Source of the DNA: a virus
Lineage: Duplodnaviria > Caudoviricetes
IMG/VR virus record: IMGVR_UViG_2744054842_000001
Location: 11,649 to 75,648 of that record
DNA: 64,000 nucleotides
Reading direction: 5' to 3' (one strand)
Positions within the stretch are counted from its first letter, which is position 1. The number at the start of each line of letters is the position of its first letter. Position numbers and translations under genes: made by a program. Shown piece by piece: positions 6,997 to 19,361 of the stretch. Under the pieces are notes generated by a model. It saw only the letters and a program-made list of their open reading frames with translations, had not been told where the DNA came from and made no database searches.

Positions 6997-9900
6997 CTAC
7001 GTTGGGTTGCGCGAGAGCCCGTAGGCCGCTTCGATTGCCTGCGCACGCTCGCCCCCGCCCCAGATATCAGCCACGAAGGCGTCGATCTGCAGCTGGCCGT
7101 CTTCACCGGTGCGCTGATCAACAGTGCCGGCACGGGACCGGTCTTCGATCAGGTTCACGGTGACGCTTGGCTGGGCGACCACGGGCGCCTGGGTGCTGCC
7201 AGACGATTGAGTCGAAACAACCGAGCCGCCACCACCAGCCACCGATACCCGCTCGTTCGAGTTGATCGCCTCGAGCAGCACCCGGTTACGCTTGGTCGCC
7301 GCGGCATTCACCACGAACTCGCCGTCGCTCAGGCGGGCCATGATGCTGTCGGAGGTGCCGGTACCGGCGCCGGACACATAGCCACCGGTGGCGAAGCCCG
7401 GGATCACGGCCAGGCTTGACGCCAGAGCCGTGGTCGAGGTCAGCGCGGCCGCTGCAGGAACGGAGTTGGCGCCCAGCGTTGCAAGGGATGCCATCGCCGC
7501 CGCCGGTGCCCAGGCCGTGGCCGTGGTACCCGCCAGGATCATGCTCTGGCCGGCCGCGGCTGTGCCGAGAGTGGCGTTCAGCGCAGCATTCAGTGCCATC
7601 TGCACGCCCATCTTCACGAAACCGGCGATGATCTCGCGCACCACGTTCGAAGCGATATCGCCAAGCGTGCTCATGGACAGCTGCCCGCTCATGATCGCGT
7701 CGGTGATATCGGTCGAGATGGTGTTGAATGCGCTGGAGAAGATCGACTGCGTTTGCCCAGCAATGTCGCGCGCCTGGTTGCCGAAGTTCTGCACGGCAGC
7801 CGTCCACCCGTTGATCGGGTTGAGCATGGCCTGGTCGATCTGCGCCCAGCCAGCCTGCATCGCTGCAAGCTGCTGAGGCAGGAACTCGTTCGTCAGGTCG
7901 ATCTGCGCCTGCAAGTCCTGCCGCTGCTTCTCCGTCGTGGCGTTCGCCAGTTCGGTGCGCAGCTGCAGGATGCGGTCGTTGGTCTGCTGCTCAAGCTGTA
8001 CGCGCTGCTGCAGTCGTTGCGTCTGCTGGTCGCCCATGCCGACACCGGCTGCAGCAATGCTGTACTCGCTCTGCTGGCCTGAAAGCTGCCGCTCAAGCTG
8101 TGCCCGGTACTGCTCGGCCTGAGTGAGGCCTTGGGCTCCCTTTATGGCGGCGGCGTAGTTCAGCGAGGACTGGGCCAGCGCTTCATTGTACTGCTGCTGA
8201 GTGATCTTCCCTTTCGACAGCAGAAGCTCAAGCTGAGATTGGCGCTCGACATACTCTTGCAGCGCGAACTTGGCCGGCTGGGCCGCCTTATACAGGTTGT
8301 CGAAAGCGGTCTGGGCTTCGTTCAGCTTGCTCGATAACCCCTTCTGCCCTTTCGGAGATCCAGTGTTTCCGGGCTTCGCAGTGGTGTTTCCGTCAATCTG
8401 ATCCAGTACTTCCTGAACCATCTCCGCAACCGTCTTGGTTTTCGGCGATGACTTCGGTTGCGAGGTCGGCTGCTGCTGGCCAAAGGTCAGAAGGCTAGCC
8501 CCCTGCAGAGTTTGCTTAGGCTCGTATTTCTCGACCAGCGAAAGCCCCTTGGCGTAGCGCACTGTCTGGTCGATAACGGTTTGAATCGCATCAACCTGGC
8601 GCTTGGCGCTGGACTCGGCGTTCTCAGCCATGGTCTTCATGGAGCGCCCTTGGCTCTCCATTTGCGACTTAATGGCTTCGGACGCAGTGATCGAAGCTGT
8701 GAGCTGAACCCGCAGCCTTTCCTGGTCTTCCTTCTTGCCGTCCTTGACTGCCTCCTCGTACTTCTTGAGGAGGTCGGTTTGTTCTCCGATCAGGCGCGCA
8801 TATTCGACCTGCTGGCTGTTGAATCCAGCCTTCGCAGCCGTATATGCAGCCTCTTGGGCAGTATTTGCGCCAATGAGGTCACGGGTTTGCGTCAGCTGGG
8901 AAATGTACTTTTCCCAGGCCTGCTCGCCACCACCGACTGCCGCAGCCGAGGCCTGCTGCGCGCTCGCCTGGGACTTGGCTGAACTGGTAGCACCATCAGT
9001 TGCGGTCTTGCTGCGGTCAAGCAAGCGGGCGTAGTCGTCAGCCTTCTGGCTGCTGGCGGAGTATTCGGCGCCGATCCTGACCAGTTCGTCGCGGTACACG
9101 CTGGAAATCTGGGTGTTGCTGGTCAGCCATCCGGTCAGCGAGTCCAGCGATCGCTGTCCGTTCCTGACCTCTTCAAACATGCGCTTGAAGGTGTCGGCCG
9201 ACTCGACTCCACTGACGCCTAGCGAGTTCAGGCCATCGAACGCCCGGGTGAAATACTCGCTGAGCGCGCTACTGGCGTCCTTAGCCGCGTCACGCTGGGC
9301 CTCCATCCATTTGGCCGACTGAAAGCGCTGCTGCTCGGCACTGAGCTGCCGGTATTTAACGATGGAATCGTCAAGCGTCAGGTTCTGGTCAATCAGCGAC
9401 TGAGTGGCGCTGTCTGTGCTCGACGAAAAGTAGATGACGGCACCTGCAGCCACGGTCAGCGCAGTGGTGAGCAGGCCTATAGGCCCTCCGGCCAATGCCA
9501 TCAGCCCAGCCGAGGCCCGCGCGCCAAGCGATTGCGCGGTGTTCAGGCGAACCTGTGCGGCGTTTTGCGCCACGACAGCAGCCGTGTCAGCCTCGCGCAG
9601 AGTCGTTAGCCGGGCCTGGCCTGCCGCAAGCTGGCTCTGAATGATGACCTCTTGCCCTGCCATCTGCCCAAGGGCGCGCTCCGCTGCTGCCTGCTGCAAT
9701 GTTACTGCGGCCTCGGCCCTTCTGATCTCAGCAAGTCGGGTCAACGACTGCTGGCGACCAACATCGTTGATCTGCGCTTGGAGGCGCTGCGCCTCAAGCG
9801 CGCGATCAGCTGCCAGCTGCTGCTGCACTGCTTGCAGCTGGGCAACGGTATTTGCCTGGGCCGCTCTCGCCGCTGCGGTCTCGGCCATCGAACGCTGAGT

Positions 9901-11025
9901 GATTGAAACTGCAGCGGCTTGTTCGGCCACGGCCTTCCGAGAGGCTTGCGCCGTAGCTGCCGTGGCCGCCACTTCTGCCTGCCTCTCAGCGACTACCTGC
10001 TGCTGACTCGCCGCCAAATCGGCATAGCGAGCCTTAGTAGCAGCCGCAAGCGAAACCACCAGCCCAGTTCCGACCTTGGCTGCGTAGGCGCCAGTGATGG
10101 CCATGAGTACATCGGTGTTTTCCGCTACTGCCTTGAGGCCATCGCCGCCGACCGCCACCAGGCTACCAAGAGCATTGGCAATGCTCTGGATACCCATGAC
10201 CACTTCAGGCTTGGCGAGCGAACTGGCCAGGGCATCTACCGAGCTAACAACCGGGTCTACGTTGATCTGTCCGATAGCGGCCAAGAAGTTGTTCTTCAGC
10301 GCGACAGACGCCTGCTCGAAGCGGCGCGGCATCTTGTCCAATTCACTGTTCAGTGACGACAGCGATTGCAGAAGCGCGTTCGTAACCACATCGGATGTGA
10401 TCTTGCCGTCAGCTGCCATCTGGCGAATTTCGCCGTTTGTGACGCCGAGATAATCCGCCAAGGCCCTGGTAATGCGAGGCCCTTGCTCCATGACAGAGTT
10501 CAGCTCTTCACCGCGCAGGGTGCCGGATGCCAACCCTTGGGACAGCTGAATGGCGGCGTTCGACGCCTCTTGCATCGTCGCGCCAGAGATCACGAACGCC
10601 TTGTTGAGCGCGTCTGTGACGTTTAACAGTTGCTCCTGGGTGAATCCTGCGCCGCGCGTAGCGTTAGCCAGGCGCGTATACAGCGATACAGTGGCCTCCA
10701 GCGAGCTTCCGGTGTTGTTGGCCATCGCCAGCAGTTTCTGGAACGACTCATTAGCGTTCGTAGTCGACGTGCTAACAAGGGCCAGCGAGCCCTGCATGGA
10801 CTTGAAGGAATCGGTTAGGCGCAGAACCTCTCGCGTCACTGCGCCGACGCCAAGAGCAGCAAGGGCACTGCCAGCCGCTCTAGCGGCATCACCTACTCCT
10901 CTGGTGCTTTCGGCAGCATCGTCGCCAGCCGCCTGCAGATTTCCCAGGCCAGATCGCAACTGGTCGACCTGCTTCTTTGCACCACGCGAGTCGATGACTA
11001 TCGCGAGTCTTGATTCCTGGGTCAT
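6997..11025 (-). CDS. Tape measure protein
   Basis: 1342 aa, Ala/Gln-rich; QLSQGLASGTLRGEELNSVME motif; FATGGYVSGAGTGTSDSI motif. Confidence 0.95.
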   Translation of the reverse strand: MTQESRLAIVIDSRGAKKQVDQLRSGLGNLQAAGDDAAESTRGVGDAARAAGSALAALGVGAVTREVLRLTDSFKSMQGSLALVSTSTTNANESFQKLLAMANNTGSSLEATVSLYTRLANATRGAGFTQEQLLNVTDALNKAFVISGATMQEASNAAIQLSQGLASGTLRGEELNSVMEQGPRITRALADYLGVTNGEIRQMAADGKITSDVVTNALLQSLSSLNSELDKMPRRFEQASVALKNNFLAAIGQINVDPVVSSVDALASSLAKPEVVMGIQSIANALGSLVAVGGDGLKAVAENTDVLMAITGAYAAKVGTGLVVSLAAATKARYADLAASQQQVVAERQAEVAATAATAQASRKAVAEQAAAVSITQRSMAETAAARAAQANTVAQLQAVQQQLAADRALEAQRLQAQINDVGRQQSLTRLAEIRRAEAAVTLQQAAAERALGQMAGQEVIIQSQLAAGQARLTTLREADTAAVVAQNAAQVRLNTAQSLGARASAGLMALAGGPIGLLTTALTVAAGAVIYFSSSTDSATQSLIDQNLTLDDSIVKYRQLSAEQQRFQSAKWMEAQRDAAKDASSALSEYFTRAFDGLNSLGVSGVESADTFKRMFEEVRNGQRSLDSLTGWLTSNTQISSVYRDELVRIGAEYSASSQKADDYARLLDRSKTATDGATSSAKSQASAQQASAAAVGGGEQAWEKYISQLTQTRDLIGANTAQEAAYTAAKAGFNSQQVEYARLIGEQTDLLKKYEEAVKDGKKEDQERLRVQLTASITASEAIKSQMESQGRSMKTMAENAESSAKRQVDAIQTVIDQTVRYAKGLSLVEKYEPKQTLQGASLLTFGQQQPTSQPKSSPKTKTVAEMVQEVLDQIDGNTTAKPGNTGSPKGQKGLSSKLNEAQTAFDNLYKAAQPAKFALQEYVERQSQLELLLSKGKITQQQYNEALAQSSLNYAAAIKGAQGLTQAEQYRAQLERQLSGQQSEYSIAAAGVGMGDQQTQRLQQRVQLEQQTNDRILQLRTELANATTEKQRQDLQAQIDLTNEFLPQQLAAMQAGWAQIDQAMLNPINGWTAAVQNFGNQARDIAGQTQSIFSSAFNTISTDITDAIMSGQLSMSTLGDIASNVVREIIAGFVKMGVQMALNAALNATLGTAAAGQSMILAGTTATAWAPAAAMASLATLGANSVPAAAALTSTTALASSLAVIPGFATGGYVSGAGTGTSDSIMARLSDGEFVVNAAATKRNRVLLEAINSNERVSVAGGGGSVVSTQSSGSTQAPVVAQPSVTVNLIEDRSRAGTVDQRTGEDGQLQIDAFVADIWGGGERAQAIEAAYGLSRNPT

Positions 11026-11091: not shown

Positions 11092-11730
11092 TTATTTCCT
11101 CAGCGCCATCAAAATCAGGACGAACACCACGCAAAAGGCGATAGCTCCAAGTGCCTTGCCGATAGCCTCGTTCTTTTCAGTTTCTGCGGCAGCCCTCTGA
11201 TTTAGATCATCTGCCTGCCTGTTTAATCTATCAGCCTCAGCGCTCATGTGAAGGGTGTTTGCATTAAGCTCTTCCGCATACATGGCCTGGAGGGCAAGCG
11301 CCTCATCTGGAGGCAGGTTTTTCAACTGTTCGTTGAACCTATCCTGCTGATCAAGAGCGATCTGATGAATATTCTCGCCTCTTGCTGCGGCCGCCAGCAG
11401 TTCGTCGCTATCTGTCTTGACGTATCTCCGCACAGCCTGCCTATCCAGAGTCCTTTCCTGGCGACTGCTTCCCTCATGATGATCATTCTGATGGGGGGAT
11501 TCCTGCAGAGAGCTATTCGACTTCGCTTCGAGTTCTGCAACATACGCGTCAGTGAAGATAACTACGTCCTCATCTGGCCATCCTTGCATGAGGTTTTTCT
11601 GAGACTCCTCATGCTTGAGCAGGAGAGCCTGAATATCCTCACCGCTTTTGGCCGCATGCTCCAGTTCAGCCATGAAATGTGCAGCAACAGTCCTTGCTAG
11701 GCTATTCAGATCATCCCTGCTTTGAGCCAT
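11092..11730 (-). CDS. Moron protein with internal duplication and C-terminal TM anchor
   Basis: Start MAQSRDD; two similar ~50-aa helical segments; hydrophobic C-terminus. Confidence 0.65.
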   Translation of the reverse strand: MAQSRDDLNSLARTVAAHFMAELEHAAKSGEDIQALLLKHEESQKNLMQGWPDEDVVIFTDAYVAELEAKSNSSLQESPHQNDHHEGSSRQERTLDRQAVRRYVKTDSDELLAAAARGENIHQIALDQQDRFNEQLKNLPPDEALALQAMYAEELNANTLHMSAEADRLNRQADDLNQRAAAETEKNEAIGKALGAIAFCVVFVLILMALRK

Positions 11731-11806
11731 TTTTTGCCACTCCCGAGTTGATGGCAGCAATCTACCACCATCAGCAGGAAGCGCCAAAACCCCGCGAATA
11801 CAGGGT

Positions 11807-11840
11807 GAAAAAAAGAAAGGACACCCAAAGGTGCCCTCTC
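11807..11840 (-). terminator. Intrinsic terminator closing the pentamer-repeat RNA array
   Basis: - strand GAGAGGGCACCTTTGGGTGTCCTTTC followed by a T run. Confidence 0.8.
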
Positions 11841-11843
11841 GAT

Positions 11844-11965
11844 GCCGTTTACGGCCCACGCCGGACCAAGCCATACCATGGCCAACCACGGCACGCCTTG
11901 TCACGCCCCAGCTCAATTGGCGGCTTACGCCACCGCAATACCCCCTCGACGAAGGAGCATTACGC
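11844..11965 (-). ncRNA. Putative guide RNA unit 2: two scaffold hairpins, 11 GGY-NN pentamers (11858-11912), GGGCCGTAAACGGC hairpin
   Basis: - strand tract GCT-GG GGC-GT GAC-AA GGC-GT GCC-GT GGT-TG GCC-AT GGT-AT GGC-TT GGT-CC GGC-GT; same scaffold as unit 1. Confidence 0.8.
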
Positions 11966-12076
11966 TGTTTTCAGCCCATGCCACACCTTGTCACGCCATA
12001 TCGCGCCGGACCCTTGCGAACCTAGCCGCATGATGCTTTCGCACCGCAATGCCCTCTCATAGAAAGGGCATGACGC
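11964..12076 (-). ncRNA. Putative guide RNA unit 1: two scaffold hairpins, 10 GGY-NN pentamers (11978-12027), GGGCTGAAAACAGC hairpin
   Basis: - strand tract GGC-TA GGT-TC GCA-AG GGT-CC GGC-GC GAT-AT GGC-GT GAC-AA GGT-GT GGC-AT; starts 3 nt after the stop of the upstream gene. Confidence 0.8.
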
Positions 12077-12079
12077 TAC

Positions 12080-12538
12080 TCAGCGCAGGGCCTTCGTCGC
12101 CATCCCGCGCAGCGCGGAGAACTTCGCCACCTGATCCAGGTTATCTCGTCGCTGATCGTCGGTCAGCTCAGTGATGCGCAGATTTCTCAGCTTCTGCCCA
12201 GTGCTGCGGAACACCTTGCGAACGTTGCGCCCAAGCTCTTCCATGGCCACCCCCGTCTGCTCATGCGGTGGCACCCAGCGATAACCGCGCCCTCGTACTG
12301 ACTGCAGGCAGACCTGGTGATCGCGCAGCAACTCGGCCTTGAACGCCTCGACGTTTGCCAGCCATTCGAACTGCCGATCGCGGAACTGCTCGACCGTGAG
12401 CGACTTGGAGTCACCCATGGAGGGCATGCCGAACCGCGCCTCAAGCCAGTCGTGCCCCACAAGGTCGCCGTACTTGAACTCCTTGAGGAAGTCCTCGACC
12501 GCCTGCTTGTGACCGGGATATTTGGTGAGCTCAGACAT
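12080..12538 (-). CDS. Accessory protein, possible winged-helix (QSVRGRGYRW), coupled to the RAMP-like gene
   Basis: Start MSELTKYPGH overlaps the upstream stop; motif resembles the OmpR-type wing TVRGxGYR. Confidence 0.65.
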   Translation of the reverse strand: MSELTKYPGHKQAVEDFLKEFKYGDLVGHDWLEARFGMPSMGDSKSLTVEQFRDRQFEWLANVEAFKAELLRDHQVCLQSVRGRGYRWVPPHEQTGVAMEELGRNVRKVFRSTGQKLRNLRITELTDDQRRDNLDQVAKFSALRGMATKALR

Positions 12539-13106
12539 AGACCACCTTGAAACGACCGAACCGTGGGCGATACTCGCAGACACCGATCAGCTTGCCGGAG
12601 TCCTCGATGGCCTTCTTCACCTCCTGAAGGTCAAGCACATCGGCATTGATCGCCACCTCAAGCTGGCATGCCCAGTCGAGAAAGATCGGCCGGTACCGCA
12701 TGATCTTGGCCTGGCCGACCTTCACTCCGCGGCAGTCGACGAAACGCTGATCATCCCAAAGCGACTCCGGCGTCGATGGGCCGGCGAATTCAAGCTCAGC
12801 CTTGTCAGTCATTACCAAGGCTCCGCGCTTCCAGTGCGTCCCCAGCTTCTGCAGCTTGGCGCCTGCAAGGAATGTCGCGTCGAAGTTCGCGCCAGGGATG
12901 AAGAACCCGGACGATGAATCAAAATAGGCACCGGCGATGAACTCAGACCGAGCAATGGCCAAGTGATCATCATCAGTTTTCTTGCGCTTGGCGGTCAGCT
13001 CCTTGTGAGCCTTCGTAGCCGGGTGCAGCGGGTTTGCCAGCTTGTCGCTGTGCATCATCAGCGGCGAAGTGCCCTTGATACTCAGAGTTAACAGCTCCAT
13101 GCTCAT
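12531..13106 (-). CDS. Stand-alone Cas7/RAMP-like protein (VIPR-like)
   Basis: N-terminal LSIKGTSPLMMH strand, FFIPGANF, RYRPIF.DW and C-terminal Gly loop IGVCEYRPRFGRF, typical of RAMP/RRM proteins; adjacent repeat RNA. Confidence 0.75.
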   Translation of the reverse strand: MSMELLTLSIKGTSPLMMHSDKLANPLHPATKAHKELTAKRKKTDDDHLAIARSEFIAGAYFDSSSGFFIPGANFDATFLAGAKLQKLGTHWKRGALVMTDKAELEFAGPSTPESLWDDQRFVDCRGVKVGQAKIMRYRPIFLDWACQLEVAINADVLDLQEVKKAIEDSGKLIGVCEYRPRFGRFKVVYV

Positions 13107-13981
13107 TTCCCGGCCCTCCGGGTCATGTACTCGTATCGGCTTTTCAGGTTCACGACAGCCGCCATCAAGAACTGGAACATTTCGGGAATCGAGACAGGAA
13201 TATCGCCAGGAGTAGCAACCATGCCCTCCATCAACTCGCGCTTGGACAGGATGAATGCGCCTTCTGATATTTCCTCAATGCTCTGCTGGCCTTTGTGGTC
13301 GAAAGCCAGCAAGTAGCGCTTGTGTGGCTCGCCGGCGATCTGAACAGGCTCACGCTTAGGCAGGTGCTCGCCCTCGAAAACGTAGGCAGCGACGAAGTTA
13401 CAGGCATTGGCCAGTTCTTCCGCCGGAATCAGTGCGGTCTTCTGAACGCTGAAGCGGGTGCGCAGCCGGCTCTTCATGGTGTGTTTGAAGCTACGGCGCA
13501 GTGCGACCGGGAGAGCGTTGGCCTTCTGATCGATGACCTGATCCAGAACGTGCTCGCCGTCACTACCTATTACCGTTCCCATGAGAGTCTGAACAGGTAC
13601 AGGGAAGGAGCTTCCACCTTGCCCCTTAATCTGGAAGTAGCTGTCTTCCAGCTTCTCGAACACCTCCCAGGCTTCGTCGGTGTCCAGCATCTTGGCATGA
13701 CGAGCAGCACCACGCTCAGTCCAGAGGATGAGGCTACGCGCCTGCTTATCAACAGACCCGATATTATCGGGGCTGTTCTTGAAAGCCTTGAGATCCGCGC
13801 CTTCCAGCTTGAAAAAGTGCTTCCCGGCTTCAAATCGGTCTGCGTTGTTCTGGAAATTGTCCTGGATGTTTTTGGGCTTGGCTCGGTACACGCTAGCGAG
13901 TGCCGCAGTGGTAATGACCGGCAGCCCGGTAAAGCGAATGCGCGGGAGGTTGTCCGGCGTAATTGTTGTGCTATTATTCAT
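13103..13981 (-). CDS. Antirepressor with ORF6N domain
   Basis: VITT..LA..Y, RFEAGKHFFKLEG and LWTERGAARHAKMLDTDEAWEVFEKLEDSYF motifs. Confidence 0.9.
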   Translation of the reverse strand: MNNSTTITPDNLPRIRFTGLPVITTAALASVYRAKPKNIQDNFQNNADRFEAGKHFFKLEGADLKAFKNSPDNIGSVDKQARSLILWTERGAARHAKMLDTDEAWEVFEKLEDSYFQIKGQGGSSFPVPVQTLMGTVIGSDGEHVLDQVIDQKANALPVALRRSFKHTMKSRLRTRFSVQKTALIPAEELANACNFVAAYVFEGEHLPKREPVQIAGEPHKRYLLAFDHKGQQSIEEISEGAFILSKRELMEGMVATPGDIPVSIPEMFQFLMAAVVNLKSRYEYMTRRAGK

Positions 13982-14048
13982 CTCGACGTTTTTCCTAGAC
14001 CGATTGACGTTATCCAAAGCCTCAGCGCCTGCCAGCACTGGGGCTTTT

Positions 14049-14216
14049 TCATGCCCGCTGCTTTTTCTCATCCTGCATCTCCTGCTCGAGTGATTTTCTG
14101 AGCCGGAAGACAATCTCTCCGCTCAAGCTTCGCCCATTAATCTCCGCGCGCTGCTCCAGCTTTTGTCGCATATCGCACAGCATTCTCACTGCGGTGGTTA
14201 TCTTCTTGGTACCCAT
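14049..14216 (-). CDS. Arc-like ribbon-helix-helix repressor (55 aa)
   Basis: Hand translation MGTKKITTAVRML...AEINGRSLSGEIVFRLRKSL; AAGGAG RBS; immediately upstream of ant. Confidence 0.8.
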   Translation of the reverse strand: MGTKKITTAVRMLCDMRQKLEQRAEINGRSLSGEIVFRLRKSLEQEMQDEKKQRA

Positions 14217-14330
14217 ACCTGGCTCCTTTTCTTGCGTTTTGTGAGTTTAATGCCTTTGATTGCCTTGTCAAACATTTTTTGCTTTTTGTGCGTTTGATGT
14301 ATGCTTCTAGAGACGTACATAGGGCGCGCC

Positions 14331-14756
14331 ATGTCTGACGATTTCGCAACAAAACTCATCTACCTGCGCGGCGAGAGAAACCTCACGCAGCAGGAACTGG
14401 GAGACGCCAGTGGTGTGTCTCCCTCACAGATTTCAAGGTATGAGGCTGGCCAGGCAAAGCCTCGTAAGACTGTGCTGAGAAAACTGGCCGAAGCACTTTG
14501 CGTGCCGGTGGAGGAGCTTCAAGACGAGGTTCCAGTCGTCCTAGAGAGTCCTGACGGCGATAAAATGCCGATCACGATAGACCGCGAAACCTTCGACCAG
14601 ATGCAAAAAGCAGCCCGCGCATCAGGCAAGTCCTTGGGCGAAGTCCTGTCTGAAACCCTCGCCTGGGGCCTCCGAATGCTCAAAGAGAGCCCCGAATTCG
14701 CCGCCAGCCTTAAGCGACAGATCGAAGAAAGCCGAAAGGCAGATAAGGACGAGTAA
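14331..14756 (+). CDS. XRE-family HTH regulator, divergent from arc/ant (immI-like)
   Basis: LTQQELGDASGVSPSQISRYEAG HTH. Confidence 0.85.
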   Translation: MSDDFATKLIYLRGERNLTQQELGDASGVSPSQISRYEAGQAKPRKTVLRKLAEALCVPVEELQDEVPVVLESPDGDKMPITIDRETFDQMQKAARASGKSLGEVLSETLAWGLRMLKESPEFAASLKRQIEESRKADKDE

Positions 14757-14839
14757 CCCCAAGCCCGGCCAAGCGCCGGTCTGACCCATCCGTTCATCGG
14801 GAATCACGAACGCCGCGGTCAGGCGCTCTACAATCGTCA

Positions 14840-14856
14840 TTAACGACCCACGTTAA
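14840..14856. promoter_or_regulatory. HigA operator-like palindrome TTAAC-N7-GTTAA
   Basis: TTAACGACCCACGTTAA directly upstream of higB. Confidence 0.65.
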
Positions 14857-14865
14857 GCGTTAACG

Positions 14866-15144
14866 ATGATTATCAGCTTCCGTTGCCAAGAAACGCAGAC
14901 GCTGTTCACGACTGGCGCCTCTCGCAGATGGGCGCCAATTCTGTCTGTCGCTCAACGAAAGCTGACGATGTTGAATGAGGCGGTCGCCCTGAAGGACCTC
15001 AGGGCACCTCCCGGGAATCGCCTGGAAGCACTACAAGGGAACCGGCAAGGTCAATACAGCATCCGAATAAATGATCAGTACCGAATTTGCTTTACCTGGG
15101 ATGCTCAGGGGCCTGAAAACGTTGAAATTGTAGACTACCACTGA
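14866..15144 (+). CDS. higB: HigB (RelE-like) toxin
   Basis: PPGNRLEALQG..GQYSIRINDQYRICF.W...VEIVDYH. Confidence 0.92.
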   Translation: MIISFRCQETQTLFTTGASRRWAPILSVAQRKLTMLNEAVALKDLRAPPGNRLEALQGNRQGQYSIRINDQYRICFTWDAQGPENVEIVDYH

Positions 15145-15152
15145 GGTGACTT

Positions 15153-15464
15153 GTGTTTACTAACGGCATGCGCCCGGTCCACCCGGGCGAGATCCTAAAG
15201 GAAGAGTTCCTCCATCCACTGGATCTCACTCCGACAGAGGTTGCTCGGAAACTTCACGTTTCCCCTCCCACTGTATTGGACATTGTGAACGAGAAGCGCG
15301 GCATCACCGCTGACGTAGCATTGCGCCTCGCAACCTGTTTTGACACCACCCCCCAATTCTGGACGAACCTCCAGTCTGCCTACGAGTTGCGCAAAGCTGA
15401 AATCGCGCATGGAGCAGAAATACAGCGGCAGGTGCAAAGGGTTGTGGAGAATGCTGAGACATAG
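15153..15464 (+). CDS. higA: HigA antitoxin
   Basis: PVHPGEILKEEFL, ITADVALRL, FW.NLQ motifs. Confidence 0.92.
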   Translation: MFTNGMRPVHPGEILKEEFLHPLDLTPTEVARKLHVSPPTVLDIVNEKRGITADVALRLATCFDTTPQFWTNLQSAYELRKAEIAHGAEIQRQVQRVVENAET

Positions 15465-15878
15465 GCGCTTGCTGGAGCTTAGCTAGACTTCTGCGCGCAG
15501 CCACCAGGCACTCTGAACGCGAACCTACACTCACCTTTAAATGCCTTGGCCACACTGAGCGCGTCGACGGCACGATCGCGAGCTACACGATTGAGGTGAC
15601 CTGCTCGCGCAATAGTCGAGTTGATATACTGGAGGTAGAACCCAGTCACCTCGCCTCGGTCCGAAGCATGAAAAGACTTCTCTTAAACCGATGCATGCTT
15701 TACTCGACCACTCAGAAAAAGCACACCGAGACCATAGCTGCGATGTTCGACGCGCAGGACACTGAAGCGGAGCGAGAGAACAGCCTCGACCAAGCCATCT
15801 CGTAGCACGGCGACAGCTAGGCGCAGGCCAGAGCTAGTCACAAAAAGCCCAGCGCGGGGCTGAGCCGGTCACTTTGAC

Positions 15879-16265
15879 CTACCAACTACTGCGCTTGGGA
15901 CGGTAATAGAGAAACAAGCTCACGGGGATCAAAAGCGCTATCACCAAGCAAAGGATGCTCACTCCACCATCCAGCCTCAGCCAACCCACAATCGCAAGAA
16001 TCTCTCCAATTATCCATGCAAGCACCCACTCACCCGTCGAGTACTCCCTGGGCCCTCCACTCGAGCTCGCTCGGCTTTGCTTGGCCTTGTAAAGCGTTGA
16101 GCTTGAAATGCCAGTTCCTGGTATTCCTGTCGTAACGCGAGTACCGCGTTTGCTGAGATTGACAGTTGCCCCTTTGACGCCGAGCGAGGTGCTAACGCCA
16201 CTCTTGCTAAGGTTGATTCGTACGCCGGGGGCGATCTTGATGCTTTTTCGAAAACGTAGCGCCAT
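15879..16265 (-). CDS. DUF4236-domain membrane protein
   Basis: FRKSIKIAPGVRINLSKSGVSTSLG...IPGTGIS; two TM segments. Confidence 0.85.
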   Translation of the reverse strand: MALRFRKSIKIAPGVRINLSKSGVSTSLGVKGATVNLSKRGTRVTTGIPGTGISSSTLYKAKQSRASSSGGPREYSTGEWVLAWIIGEILAIVGWLRLDGGVSILCLVIALLIPVSLFLYYRPKRSSW

Positions 16266-16419
16266 AGCTCGACTCCTTGAGGAAGGCAATGAGCCATCAT
16301 CGCTGAAAGCTGATCACCTGACCACCCTGTCCGCCCATCCACCCTGGACGGAAAGCCAGTAACCCGCCATGCGGGTGCCGTAGTAGCGTTGTGCCTCCAC
16401 ATCGCAAGGAGGGTTAGAC

Positions 16420-16680
16420 ATGGCCCAATACGCTTCGGACACAAAGAAATACTTAAGCGAAACTACAGAGCCCAATGCGGATCATTGGAAGAAGATGTAC
16501 GGGGTCGGCGCGATAGTGCCCGTTTCTGGCATATACCGCTGCAGAGGCTGCGGCGACGAAATTACCTCGAACAAAGGTGACCCCTTCCCACCCCAAAACA
16601 AACACCAGCATGCAGACCCAAAAGTTGACATTTGGTGGGAGCTGATCGTTAAAACCCAAACTACTGGTTCAGGCCGGTAA
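16420..16680 (+). CDS. Small Zn-ribbon protein (YjzC/protein L-like)
   Basis: VPVSGIYRCRGCG...FPPQN.HQH...W. Confidence 0.7.
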   Translation: MAQYASDTKKYLSETTEPNADHWKKMYGVGAIVPVSGIYRCRGCGDEITSNKGDPFPPQNKHQHADPKVDIWWELIVKTQTTGSGR

Positions 16681-16743
16681 CAAACCGCCCCGGTCCGTTG
16701 CCGGCAAGCCCATGGACCGGGGCAACATTGACCAGGAGGTCGC

Positions 16744-17004
16744 ATGAGCTACGAACAAGAGATGCATCGCTTCATTGAGCAACAGCAGAAGTACATTCAA
16801 GAGCTAGCTAACACCGTTGAGACTATGGCCTGCTTGACTCGAGGACTGCTCAAGGCTGTGCATCAGTCGTCAGGGGATAGCGGCGTTGATGCAGTCCTCG
16901 ACACGGCACTGGCGGCAGCAAGCGGTATGCGCTGGAGCGGCGAAGCCAGAGCTAACAAGGTTCTGATCAAGCAGCTGTGCGACGAGGCTAAATCCGCTAG
17001 ATAA
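16744..17004 (+). CDS. Hypothetical moron protein
   Basis: AGGAGG RBS, 86-aa ORF. Confidence 0.6.
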   Translation: MSYEQEMHRFIEQQQKYIQELANTVETMACLTRGLLKAVHQSSGDSGVDAVLDTALAAASGMRWSGEARANKVLIKQLCDEAKSAR

Positions 17005-17149
17005 TCGGATTCAATCCGAGCGCTTCTTCGAGGCGCGTGAGCCGGCGCTCTAATAGGTCGGCCTCATCACTCGCGAGCTTCTTCAACTCCTCAAGCGTCT
17101 TTACCGGTTTACCATCAGGCTGCTCTTCCATTTCTTCCAGATTTTGCAT
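16997..17149 (-). CDS. 50-aa small protein ending LLERRLTRLEEALGLNPII
   Basis: Hand-translated; AGGAG RBS; paralog of 6844-6987. Confidence 0.6.
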   Translation of the reverse strand: MQNLEEMEEQPDGKPVKTLEELKKLASDEADLLERRLTRLEEALGLNPII

Positions 17150-17158
17150 GCTCATCTC

Positions 17159-17344
17159 CTAATTTTCGTCCTCTTCCGCCAGCGCGGCCTCATCCAAGGC
17201 GAATATCACCTCGTCGACAAGGCGCCTGGGCAGTGGTAGCGGGTGAACCTCAAGCCAGTCGGTGATCTCCCGGGCTGAAAGCCTTAGTGGCTGCACTGCG
17301 GCGGCGCCAACCAGGTAGCGCCGCCCGCGCGCCGAACTACTCAT
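17159..17344 (-). pseudogene. Relic second copy of the tail chaperone gpT C-terminus
   Basis: RGRRY...EI.D...IFALDE pattern parallels the 17341-17583 product. Confidence 0.55.
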
Positions 17345-18134
17345 TTTTTCCGGCGCGCATCCTTCGGCCGCTCTTTTTCCTGCTGCTCGGCCCAGTGCCT
17401 GCGGAACTCGTCGTCCAGGGCGAAGATCGCTGCATCAATCTCTTCGCGGCATATCGCTGATGGCTTGCGGTCGAAATACTCGTTGATGGGGGTTAGCGCT
17501 ATAGGAGCCGGCGCTCCGATCACGCCCACATACTGTCGAGACCTGCTGATGGCGGCGTAAGCTTCAAGGACCTCGGTCACCACGTTGTCGATCTCCGGCG
17601 GATCCTGAGCCTTCAGCCCTAAGCGCTCGTGCTTCCAGCGCTTTTTCTCATTCTCCTGGCCAGACCAATCACGCGACCAGCGATATGCCTCTACGGCTTT
17701 TTTGCCGTCTCCTTGGCCCGCTCCTCGGCCCGCGTGGCGATGTCGGTGGCCACTTGCAGAGCGGTGAAATAGACATCCGGGCGCTGTGCGATGAGAAGCT
17801 TGCCGCGCTCTTGCGTGTACTCGATATCAACGCCTGGCTGCTCGGCCTCTTCCACGCCCTCCCAGCCAAGGATGATGTGCTTGCACACCAGGTCGACCAG
17901 CATGTCATCCATGCTTTCGATGTCTGGGATCTCAGCGTTCACCGGGTCGAAACCTTCGGTGCCCACGCCGTAGCGAGAGTCCACAATCGCCTGATGCCGC
18001 TGGATCAGGGCGTGGTGAGACTTGAACTTCGGATTACCCGCCGATCCGACCTTGATCCTCACGCCCGGGGCGATATCCACCCACCGCGTGCCTTCAAGGT
18101 CCAACTTTGGAGCCTGGGAAATGACGATAGCCAT
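17341..18134 (-). CDS. Tail assembly chaperones gpG (17691-18134) and gpGT via -1 frameshift
   Basis: Slippery A AAA AAG just before the gpG stop; the -1 frame runs open (AVEAYRWSRDW...) into 17341-17583. Confidence 0.8.
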
Positions 18135-18191
18135 GGTATTCCTCTGCGGTAAAAGGCCCGACACACACCGCAGGGCGCGCCGGGCAAAGGG

Positions 18192-19361
18192 TTAAGCGGT
18201 GACGGTGACAGCACAGGTGTCGGTCTTGGTGCCGTCTGCGGCGCTGGTCGCGGTGATGGTGGCGGTGCCGGCAGCCAGGCCGGTTACCAGGCCGGTGGCG
18301 CTCACGCTTGCGATGGCCGGGTCCGAAGAGGTCCAGGTAACCAGCTGGCTTGCGCCAACTGGGGTGACCACGGCCTCGAGATCTGCAGTTTCGTCCACCG
18401 CTAGGCTCAGGGTGGCCGGGGTTACTTCCACCGCAGCAATGACGACGGGCGCCGGCAGACGGGTGATGGTCGGCGGCACGCGGCGGGCGGTGTATGACAA
18501 CTCGACTTGAACGATGTCGGTGGCGCCACCGTCCGGCCAATCGCCGCTGACTTCCATCTCGGGGATGAGGAAGGTGTAGCCACCGTCTGCGTTGCTCAGG
18601 GTGAACTCGAAGCTGAGCGAGTCGCCGGTCTGCTGCGCCTTCCAGTACTGGTAGGCGGTCTTGGACCAACTCAGGGTGATCGAGCCGGACGGAACGAACG
18701 TCGTTGTGATCACTGCCCCGGGAAACGGGTTGCCGTTGCCGATGCAGCGCTGGGTCTGCGAGTTGTTGGCGAACTGCAGGTTGAAGGTGTCAACGCACGC
18801 GTTGTCGTCACCCAGCTGCACGCCGTTGATCTTCAGCCCGGTCACATCCTTGAAGCCGTAGCGCCGCTGGTTGGCCTCGGGCGCAGGACTGACGATGAAG
18901 GAAGTGTTGTCGGCCTTGTCCTGCCACGAGGTGGCCATGAACGTGGTGGTGACGCTGATCTCGTTGTCGTTCGGGACCTCGATGTTGATCGTGTCAACCT
19001 GGGCTCCGCGAGCGATGCCGGCGATACCAACGTCCGCGTCATAGGCAGCGATGGAGAACGAAATGCGATCGTTGCCCATGGTCAGGGTATTACCGGACCA
19101 GTTCGCGCCGAAGCAGGAGGCCAGGAACTCGTCCAGAGCCCCGTAGCGGAACTTGGTCTCGATATCGCCGCCGACATCCACGGTCGTCTGGGCAGTGCCC
19201 TGCGACATGCGAGTCTCGCCGATCTCGTTGTTCTCTTCGGTGTTGTAGGTAGGCACCAGGCCGAAGCTGACGCGGGTCAGCACGTTCCATGGGCCTGGCG
19301 GGGTAATTCCCGGGGTGATCTCGCGAATCCACGCGGTCGAGCGCTTTGCACCGCTACTCAT
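18192..19361 (-). CDS. Major tail tube protein with C-terminal Ig-like (Big_2) domain
   Basis: MSSGAK start; WTSSDPAIASVSATGLVTGLAAGTATITAT. Confidence 0.9.
   Translation of the reverse strand: MSSGAKRSTAWIREITPGITPPGPWNVLTRVSFGLVPTYNTEENNEIGETRMSQGTAQTTVDVGGDIETKFRYGALDEFLASCFGANWSGNTLTMGNDRISFSIAAYDADVGIAGIARGAQVDTINIEVPNDNEISVTTTFMATSWQDKADNTSFIVSPAPEANQRRYGFKDVTGLKINGVQLGDDNACVDTFNLQFANNSQTQRCIGNGNPFPGAVITTTFVPSGSITLSWSKTAYQYWKAQQTGDSLSFEFTLSNADGGYTFLIPEMEVSGDWPDGGATDIVQVELSYTARRVPPTITRLPAPVVIAAVEVTPATLSLAVDETADLEAVVTPVGASQLVTWTSSDPAIASVSATGLVTGLAAGTATITATSAADGTKTDTCAVTVTA

Follow-up and report, generated by a model that had tools for sequence, protein, structure and literature searches.

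A probable type II VIPR locus in a Pseudomonas-type siphophage provirus, with guides predicted to aim at rival tail tube genes

Introduction

Between the tail genes of a Pseudomonas-type provirus lies a pair of overlapping genes followed by a short, hairpin-rich tract of five-nucleotide repeats. The locus raises the question of what kind of system this compact unit represents and, if its repeats are carried by guide RNAs, what these guides recognize. It is contained in the window analyzed here, a stretch of 64,000 nt that covers positions 11,649-75,648 of the IMG/VR provirus record IMGVR_UViG_2744054842_000001 (Caudoviricetes; 75,648 bp, 100% complete by estimate). The host phage is a temperate, Pseudomonas-type siphophage. 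Very probably, the locus is a VIPR (Viral Interference Programmable Repeat) system of type II whose guides target the genes for the tail tube in rival phages, with the phage's own allele of the gene escaping.

VIPR systems are in print in three bioRxiv preprints from 2026 (10.64898/2026.04.26.720920, 10.64898/2026.04.26.720927 and 10.64898/2026.10.15.759431). As defined in these sources, a VIPR system consists of a stand-alone RAMP protein (Vipr), usually one accessory gene (vap), and guide RNAs (vrRNAs) in which 9-16 YNNGG repeats (at least 4), flanking vipr on the same strand, are followed by a conserved 3' tail. In the mode of action that the preprints set out, there is one Vipr protomer per repeat, the NN dinucleotides read double-stranded DNA, each unit skipping one target base, and the outcome is transcriptional silencing. 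The systems they describe are mostly located in viruses or proviruses, and the type II examples are those of phage SUSP1 and of a Pseudomonas fulva prophage. Targets on both strands, binding of double-stranded DNA in vitro and a DNA-bound SUSP1 structure are reported (10.64898/2026.04.26.720920, 10.64898/2026.04.26.720927).

A reading made from the letters and open reading frames (ORFs) of the window, here called the sequence-only reading, had put forward the name VIPR and had allowed that the system might be undescribed. The name proved to be real, and homologs of Vipr and Vap1 are encoded at the locus; the idea of an undescribed system is superseded by the preprints, as far as these present it. 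The kind of system is already described, and what is new here is the locus and the predictions that connect its guides with targets, the papers' supplementary locus and target tables lying outside the comparison. The main value is one of confirmation: the locus had been recognized as VIPR from the letters alone, and the defining features open to in silico examination are present, with the SUSP1 contact and pocket residues kept in part.

The Vipr protein and its Vap1-like partner

The vipr gene (12531-13106, minus strand) encodes a stand-alone RAMP protein of 191 amino acids, and the vap1-like accessory gene (12080-12538, minus strand) encodes 152 amino acids from an ATG at 12538. The two ORFs overlap by 8 nt, as the sequence-only reading had described them, and an alternative, GTG-started form of the vap1-like ORF is open to 12583. 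A search of PDB sequences with the 191-residue protein returned a single match, chain 36pp_D, entered as 'SUSP1 Vipr protein' (E 4.3e-43, residues 3-188). Against the copy of Vipr in the phiSUSP1 genome, 75/188 residues are identical (40%, E 3e-53). Neither the 191- nor the 152-residue protein has a significant family in Pfam, and the PHROGs families phrog_4652 (vipr) and phrog_5926 (vap1-like) are of unknown function.

An AlphaFold2 model of the Vipr homolog, built on an alignment of 23 homologs, has a predicted local distance difference test (pLDDT) score of 94.3. Foldseek aligned this model with 59 PDB matches at E <= 0.001. The top rows are Csm3/Cas7 RAMP chains from CRISPR effector complexes of types III and VII; Cmr and Cas6 chains rank lower, and the matches overall span E 3e-5 to 1e-3 at a template modeling (TM) score of ~0.5. 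As modeled, the protein has a minimal RAMP fold, an RRM-based RAMP/Cas7-like core, and the structure check together with the match to 36pp_D bears out the earlier proposal of a stand-alone RAMP/Cas7-like protein. The C-terminal G-loop residues G175, R180, G184, R185 and F186 are invariant across the 23 homologs. In SUSP1 Vipr, residues H17, K33, R138, R179, E71, M72, D177 and W178 are described as RNA/DNA contact or pocket residues (10.64898/2026.04.26.720927). The first four are kept here as H19, K35, R139 and R180 (pairwise alignment, hand count), and H19, R139 and R180 are invariant in the 23 homologs.

The 152-residue protein shares 22% identity over 135 residues (E 2e-13) with Vap1, a predicted DNA-binding protein whose gene comes next after vipr in SUSP1, and is on this alignment a Vap1 homolog. 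Its structural model has a pLDDT of 87.6.

Architecture of the vrRNA array

Downstream of the vap1-like stop codon lies a non-coding array stretch of 272 nt (11808-12079, minus strand), and all of its parts are given here in the direction of the genes. It begins with a leader (12033-12079) that holds a copy of a hairpin termed A and a short GNRA-type hairpin termed B; the hairpin is present in the minimum free energy fold. The repeat tract of vrRNA1 (11978-12032) has 11 pentamers with the NN series GC TA TC AG CC GC AT GT AA GT AT. It is followed by a tail (11913-11977) made of a GGGCUG-AAAA-CAGC mini-hairpin, hairpin A of ~30 nt, and hairpin B. The repeat tract of vrRNA2 (11858-11912) likewise has 11 pentamers, with the NN series GG GT AA GT GT TG AT AT TT CC GT, and its tail (11808-11857) consists of a GGGCCG-UAAA-CGGC mini-hairpin, an intrinsic terminator hairpin and a U-run. 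The intrinsic-terminator-like hairpin and its T-run (11840-11815, minus strand) close the array. The two downstream units with hairpins, period-5 GGY-NN tracts (12032-11978 and 11912-11858) and a terminator had been read correctly from the letters of the window.

The tracts are singular in their surroundings. Scanning both strands of the 64-kb window for GGY-NN tracts recovered just these two, and the entire 75,648-bp record holds no further one. Among 100 first-order Markov random sequences, the mean was 0.23 tracts, and none had at least 7 good units. Compared with shuffled sequences, the folding of the full array has a z of -6.3. Rfam has no family for the array RNA (best match 17.4 bits; gathering score 40). 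The pair of hairpins A and B, found between the two tracts, also precedes the first one, and SUSP1 too has a hairpin before each tract. The terminal architecture of vrRNA2, a mini-hairpin followed by a terminator, also occurs at two related loci (L002 and L003). Within the array, a 36-nt element occurs twice at a spacing of 111 nt, one copy being 12042-12077, and a second repeated element recurs at 90 nt. The latter is a 12-nt stretch with the NN series GT AA GT that is common to units 8-10 of vrRNA1 (12003-11989) and units 2-4 of vrRNA2 (11907-11893).

Conservation among relatives

Relatives of the locus were drawn from a scan of one genome per species, which gave 25 loci. The closest Vipr relatives, 90% identical, are those of P. 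laurentiana, P. entomophila and a Pseudomonas metagenome-assembled genome. In a phage collection, 135 records carry relatives, including Pseudomonas phage Medea1 (83%) and phiSUSP1 (39.7%). In 17 of the 25 related loci, and in Medea1 as well, the gene immediately downstream of vipr is a vap homolog. GGY-NN tracts accompany vipr at 23/25 loci, always on the vipr strand. At the remaining two, L013 and L022 (57% and 35% Vipr identity), the scanner found no GGY-NN tract in the flanking DNA examined; these loci may have a different repeat consensus, or the tract may lie beyond that flank. Four distant Vipr relatives (L016, L018, L021 and L024; 31-49% identity) have longer and cleaner arrays of up to 23 consecutive GGC-NN units, and some of these arrays lie upstream of vipr.

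A set of 33 vrRNAs was collected from 14 close loci by means of the anchor motif GGGCYG-N4-CRGC 3' of the tract. The motif follows 33/33 tracts, a count that reflects its use as the collection anchor. In this set, the first position of the repeat is G in 94%, the second is G in 72% and the third is C or T in 96%. The mean information content is 1.68, 0.82 and 0.86 bits at these three positions versus 0.23 and 0.21 bits at the two NN positions, and the 33 vrRNAs carry 32 different NN series. Related vrRNAs keep the GGY scaffold, and their NN bases are hypervariable (near-random). This is the pattern that the sequence-only reading had named as the one to look for among homologs: the GGY triplets and the tail are kept, and the NN bases vary rather than being as conserved as the triplets.

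The tail is conserved as a structure as well. Compensatory changes occur in 13/19 predicted pairs of the tail hairpin (21 sequences). The mini-hairpin and hairpin B were missed by RNAalifold, and both come from visual inspection of the alignment of the 33 vrRNAs; on inspection, the terminal units covary as GCYG/CRGC, and hairpin B falls into two register classes. The last pentamer before GGG, located here at 11978-11982 and 11858-11862, has mostly AT as its NN (A in 27/33, T in 26/33), and AT also stands before GGG in several units of the SUSP1 arrays. This last pentamer may belong to the tail or handle instead of the guide. At the P. laurentiana locus (L002), a third vrRNA is the sister of vrRNA2, with 9/9 NN dinucleotides equal over the part common to both and 5 scaffold bases changed. 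The NN series of this sister guide is kept despite the scaffold changes, as expected if NN carries information.

Predicted targets of the guides

Targets were searched by replacing each GGY with one wildcard base, which is the published 1-nt-skip rule. The final guide register comprises units -11 to -2 (20 NN bases) and is independently supported by the NN conservation across the 33 vrRNAs. With this register, an exact scan of the whole of IMG/VR gave 19 matches to vrRNA1, and 19/19 fall at one tail-tube site encoding IT(A/T)TFTMAGLDYA. When vrRNA1 was compared with 62 tube loci of this kind from IMG/VR (family B), it matched 20/20 in 18 loci, 19/20 in 6 and 18/20 in 6. If 0, 2 or 3 bases are skipped instead of one, the best scores at the same 62 loci are 16, 15 and 14.

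The second guide points to a different site in a different family of tube genes. Its matches in a scan of Pseudomonas genomes lie, in 9/9 cases, at one homologous site of a tube gene that encodes PF18906 and a Big_2 domain. Against 80 tube loci of this family (family A, IMG/VR), vrRNA2 matches 19/20 in 39, 18/20 in 39, 17/20 in 1 and 15/20 in 1, and skips of 0, 2 or 3 give best scores of 16, 15 and 15 at these loci. When 200 shuffled guides were scored as a null against the same 2.2 Mb, the best results were 18/20 for vrRNA1 (once) and 17/20 for vrRNA2. At both tube sites, the skipped bases fall on the third positions of codons, and both guides are antisense to the tube-gene mRNA. The GT AA GT units shared by the two vrRNAs read Thr-Phe-Thr codons of the tube protein in both targets, at non-homologous sites.

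The phage's own genome presents no such target. In its own contig, no match to either guide of at least 75% was found, and no window reaches 16/20. The own major tail tube gene (18195-19361, minus strand) belongs to family A, and its product is 84% identical to the tube protein targeted by vrRNA2. At the vrRNA2 site (18693-18722), the own allele encodes PGAVITTTFV versus (P/A)GNIIPTTFT in the targeted genes, and it matches 13/20 NN bases of vrRNA2 (hand count). Judged from these alignments, the guides appear to have natural targets in competing elements under the 1-nt-skip rule and no self-target; the sequence-only reading had named competing phages as the likely object of silencing. The perfect 20/20 target, the near-perfect 19/20 target and the own 13/20 allele form a testable trio that could gauge mismatch tolerance.

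Further matches to these prophages, at 19-20/20, come from the guides of the nearest relatives; they lie on both strands and within 8-10 kb of the tube gene. Matches on both strands are expected for DNA targets. The first vrRNA of the P. laurentiana locus (L002:4141) matches 20/20 in 7/80 family-A loci and 19/20 in 28 more (for example L044:9977-10005), and its site spans both the start codon and the ribosome-binding site of that family's tube gene. These matches suggest that a second VIPR phage also aims at tube genes.

Points against the assignment and alternative explanations

Several results weigh against a functional VIPR system aimed at tube genes. In the array, the triplets are mostly GGC or GGT, and CAT, GCA, GAT, GAC, GCT and GCC occur as degenerate ones. 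A search of sequencing runs found no RNA run containing the locus. Not all of the SUSP1 residues listed above are preserved: at the pocket positions E71 and M72 the present protein has A73 and N74, and D177 and W178 are replaced by E and Y, both conservative changes. For the Vap model, Foldseek returned nothing at E <= 0.001 and weak winged-helix rows at E 0.1-1, and a VIA-align wide comparison was dominated by the C-terminal helical hairpin. A DNA-binding fold of the Vap1-like protein is only weakly indicated by its model.

Other contrary points concern the targets. The final register was chosen after the first hits. The first register, a run of 10 units of which the last directly precedes GGG, gave 18/20 and 0 exact IMG/VR matches for vrRNA1. 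For vrRNA2, that register gave 1 exact IMG/VR match, which lies in a structural gene of an unrelated AT-rich phage and was judged to be chance. In the final register, vrRNA2 has 0 exact matches in IMG/VR and no perfect natural tube target. Its exact matches in metagenome contigs number 3, of which 2 are in an unrelated ORF and 1 is in low-GC DNA free of ORFs; they are located outside tube genes and are consistent with chance. The genus scans lie near background: 2/301 Pseudomonas genomes for vrRNA1 against 2 control hits, and, at <= 2 mismatches, 9/401 sampled Pseudomonas genomes for vrRNA2 against 2 for the reversed control. One of the vrRNA1 genus-scan matches is in the tube gene of a P. laurentiana prophage that itself carries a VIPR locus. 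At <= 3 mismatches, vrRNA1 is absent from 50 family-A provirus records. The hits in tube genes are, moreover, homologous to one another and amount to about 1 independent event per guide.

These points leave room for a quite unlikely alternative in which the VIPR system is genuine and the tube matches are chance or historical, with the real targets elsewhere, for example in the lysis-lysogeny regulators of resident prophages, at which most guides of the P. fulva clade are reported to be directed. The closeness of the genus scans to their controls and the non-independence of homologous tube hits would fit it. It is difficult to reconcile with the exact IMG/VR matches of vrRNA1, all of which fall at a single tube site, or with the fact that both guides independently lie in tube genes, in phase with the codons, solely under the 1-nt-skip rule. 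Both guides also exceed the 200 shuffled-guide nulls, and the guides of the closest relatives match the same prophages close to the tube gene.

A second alternative accepts the tube genes and proposes that the guides pair with the tube mRNA instead of double-stranded DNA. The orientation of vrRNA1 and vrRNA2, both antisense to that mRNA, is compatible with it, and type III CRISPR RAMP proteins act on RNA. Even so, it is very improbable. The guides of L001 and L003 and the first vrRNA of L002 match the tail region in its sense orientation and therefore cannot pair with mRNA. The published work, as far as it describes targeting, reports targets on both strands, in vitro binding of double-stranded DNA and the DNA-bound SUSP1 structure. 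The sequence-only reading had left this choice open when it took the NN bases for a gapped guide to DNA or RNA: the gapped guide agrees with the matches under the 1-nt-skip rule, and the RNA half of the proposal is at odds with the published target, which is double-stranded DNA.

That the locus is an inactive relic, with intact-looking genes and decayed guide RNAs, is scarcely credible: the units that depart from GGY and the G found in just 72% of second positions clade-wide would fit it, but the two ORFs are intact and share 84-99% identity with their counterparts in relatives, the same degeneracy runs throughout the clade and internal vrRNA degeneracy is described as frequent (10.64898/2026.04.26.720920), the P. 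laurentiana sister guide keeps its NN bases under apparent selection, and vrRNA1 has a perfect target.

Comparison with described systems

A type II VIPR system aimed at tail tube genes has its closest described counterparts in SUSP1 and in the P. fulva prophage clade. Like the SUSP1 system, the locus is phage-borne, is free of cas genes and has a vipr-vap1 pair, vrRNAs of ~11-12 GGY-NN pentamers, a hairpin before each tract and a structured 3' tail that starts from a GGG unit. It differs from SUSP1 in sequence (Vipr 40% and Vap 22% identity) and in layout, all vrRNAs being downstream here and none upstream of vipr. The tail here consists of a mini-hairpin and a long covarying hairpin, whereas SUSP1 has a pseudoknot sequence. 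The carrier is a temperate siphophage in contrast to the lytic, Felix-O1-like SUSP1, and the predicted targets are the tail tubes of rival prophages rather than the recombinase of a satellite.

The P. fulva prophage clade comprises 32 loci and 96 vrRNAs (10.64898/2026.04.26.720920). As that preprint presents it, the clade resembles the present locus in being type II, in residing in Pseudomonas prophages, in combining vrRNAs, vipr and vap1, and in having predicted targets in other Pseudomonas prophages. The two differ in that lysis-lysogeny regulators are stressed as targets there, whereas tube genes are predicted for both guides here. The present locus suggests that VIPRs of the Pseudomonas clade aim at virion structural genes (the tail tube), beyond regulators.

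The locus resembles class 1 CRISPR systems at the level of the protein. The RAMPs of these systems (Csm3/Cas7, types III and VII) share the RRM-based RAMP fold and the glycine-rich loop, with Foldseek matches at E 3e-5 to 1e-4 and a TM score of ~0.5, and the logic of a filament with one subunit per repeat is common to both (10.64898/2026.04.26.720927, in its account of the filament). Unlike class 1 RAMPs, with which sequence identity is 10-12%, the protein here is paired with a period of 5 instead of 6 and with a gapped guide. Unlike class 1 CRISPR, the locus is without a repeat-spacer array, cas1, cas2, cas6, cas10 or an adaptation module. Scanning 27 ORFs in 1-26 kb with Cas models gave 0 matches (PADLOC 2023), the vipr and vap1-like proteins have no PADLOC (2023) family, and no CRISPR-like multi-copy repeat-spacer array was found in 1-30 kb. 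These searches agree with the sequence-only reading, which had seen no cas genes or CRISPR array nearby. Having neither the array nor the cas gene set, the locus is not a member of class 1 CRISPR-Cas.

The cassette and a proposed mechanism

The vipr and vap1-like genes form the downstream part of a putative operon on the minus strand. Its first gene (14049-14216, minus strand) encodes an Arc-like ribbon-helix-helix protein of 55 amino acids (Arc-like PHROG families, E 5e-8 to 8e-11); L001-L003 and phage Medea1 also have a homolog upstream of vipr. The second (13103-13981, minus strand) encodes an ORF6N/Rha-type anti-repressor (PF10543 ORF6N, E 7e-18; anti-repressor PHROGs also match). The anti-repressor ORF is open up to 14113, so that its start position is uncertain, and 4 nt are shared between its stop and the start of vipr. 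The same anti-repressor weakly matches PDC-S05, a PADLOC candidate-system family (E 6e-8). Upstream of the Arc-like gene is a candidate promoter (14244-14271, minus strand) with TTGACA, a 16-nt spacer and TAAACT; it matches the consensus at 10/12 positions, and a promoter function is suggested by this match alone. Divergent from the cassette is an XRE/cI-type helix-turn-helix regulator (14301-14756, plus strand; repressor PHROGs, E 8e-16), whose homologs occupy the equivalent position in L001-L003, L005 and Medea1.

In the immI-type module of phage P22, a gene for an Arc-like repressor is followed by an anti-repressor gene, arc and ant, beside a divergent repressor gene, and the same arrangement is found here. 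Unlike in the P22-type module, ant is followed here by vipr, vap and the vrRNAs, all oriented as ant is, with stop and start codons that overlap. The order repressor, Arc, Rha anti-repressor, vipr, vap and vrRNA is identical in Medea1, where the cassette lies between different tail genes, and Pseudomonas relatives carry parts of the repressor/Arc/anti-repressor/vipr cassette. A conserved linkage of VIPR to an arc/anti-repressor module is among the things that this locus adds to the described systems.

By homology to the VIPR systems of SUSP1 and of P. fulva, a single transcript covering arc, ant, vipr, vap and the vrRNAs would run from the promoter near 14250 to the terminator at 11815. The array portion is predicted to be processed into two vrRNAs of ~100 nt each. 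Each GGY triplet would be bound by one Vipr protomer, and the resulting helical filament would present the NN dinucleotides, whose bases would pair with double-stranded DNA while skipping every third target base. The bound complex would then block transcription. According to the target searches, vrRNA1 would direct the complex to the IT(A/T)TFTMAGLDYA site of the gene for the major tail tube in one lineage of rival prophages, and vrRNA2 to the GNIIPTTFTP site that phages of the own lineage have in this gene. The own tube allele has diverged and would escape its own guide. The likely effect is that co-resident or superinfecting rivals would be unable to build tails.

A functional link between VIPR and the anti-repressor is speculative. 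One tentative and rather unlikely extension is an 'induce and disarm' operon, in which heteroimmune resident prophages would be driven from lysogeny by the anti-repressor and then, with their tail tube genes silenced by VIPR, would be unable to produce virions. The divergence of the own tube allele would serve as self-protection in a contest over a structural gene, and the cassette would be a mobile module of inter-phage warfare. As part of this proposal, the presence of the shared cassette at differing tail-module sites in Medea1, P. laurentiana and P. entomophila would indicate a mobile module.

Surroundings of the cassette

The cassette is part of a moron-like island of ~6.5 kb (11092-17600), which also holds a toxin-antitoxin pair and several ORFs that belong to no known family. 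On one side the island is flanked by the tape measure gene (7000-11025) and on the other by the gene that encodes the tail assembly chaperone (17694-18164). At its edge near the tape measure gene is an ORF of 212 amino acids (11092-11730) that has no match in PHROG, Pfam or PADLOC. The toxin-antitoxin pair, a HigB/RelE-like toxin and a helix-turn-helix antitoxin (14866-15461, plus strand; phrog_3066, E 7e-33; phrog_1381, E 3e-26), adjoins the VIPR cassette.

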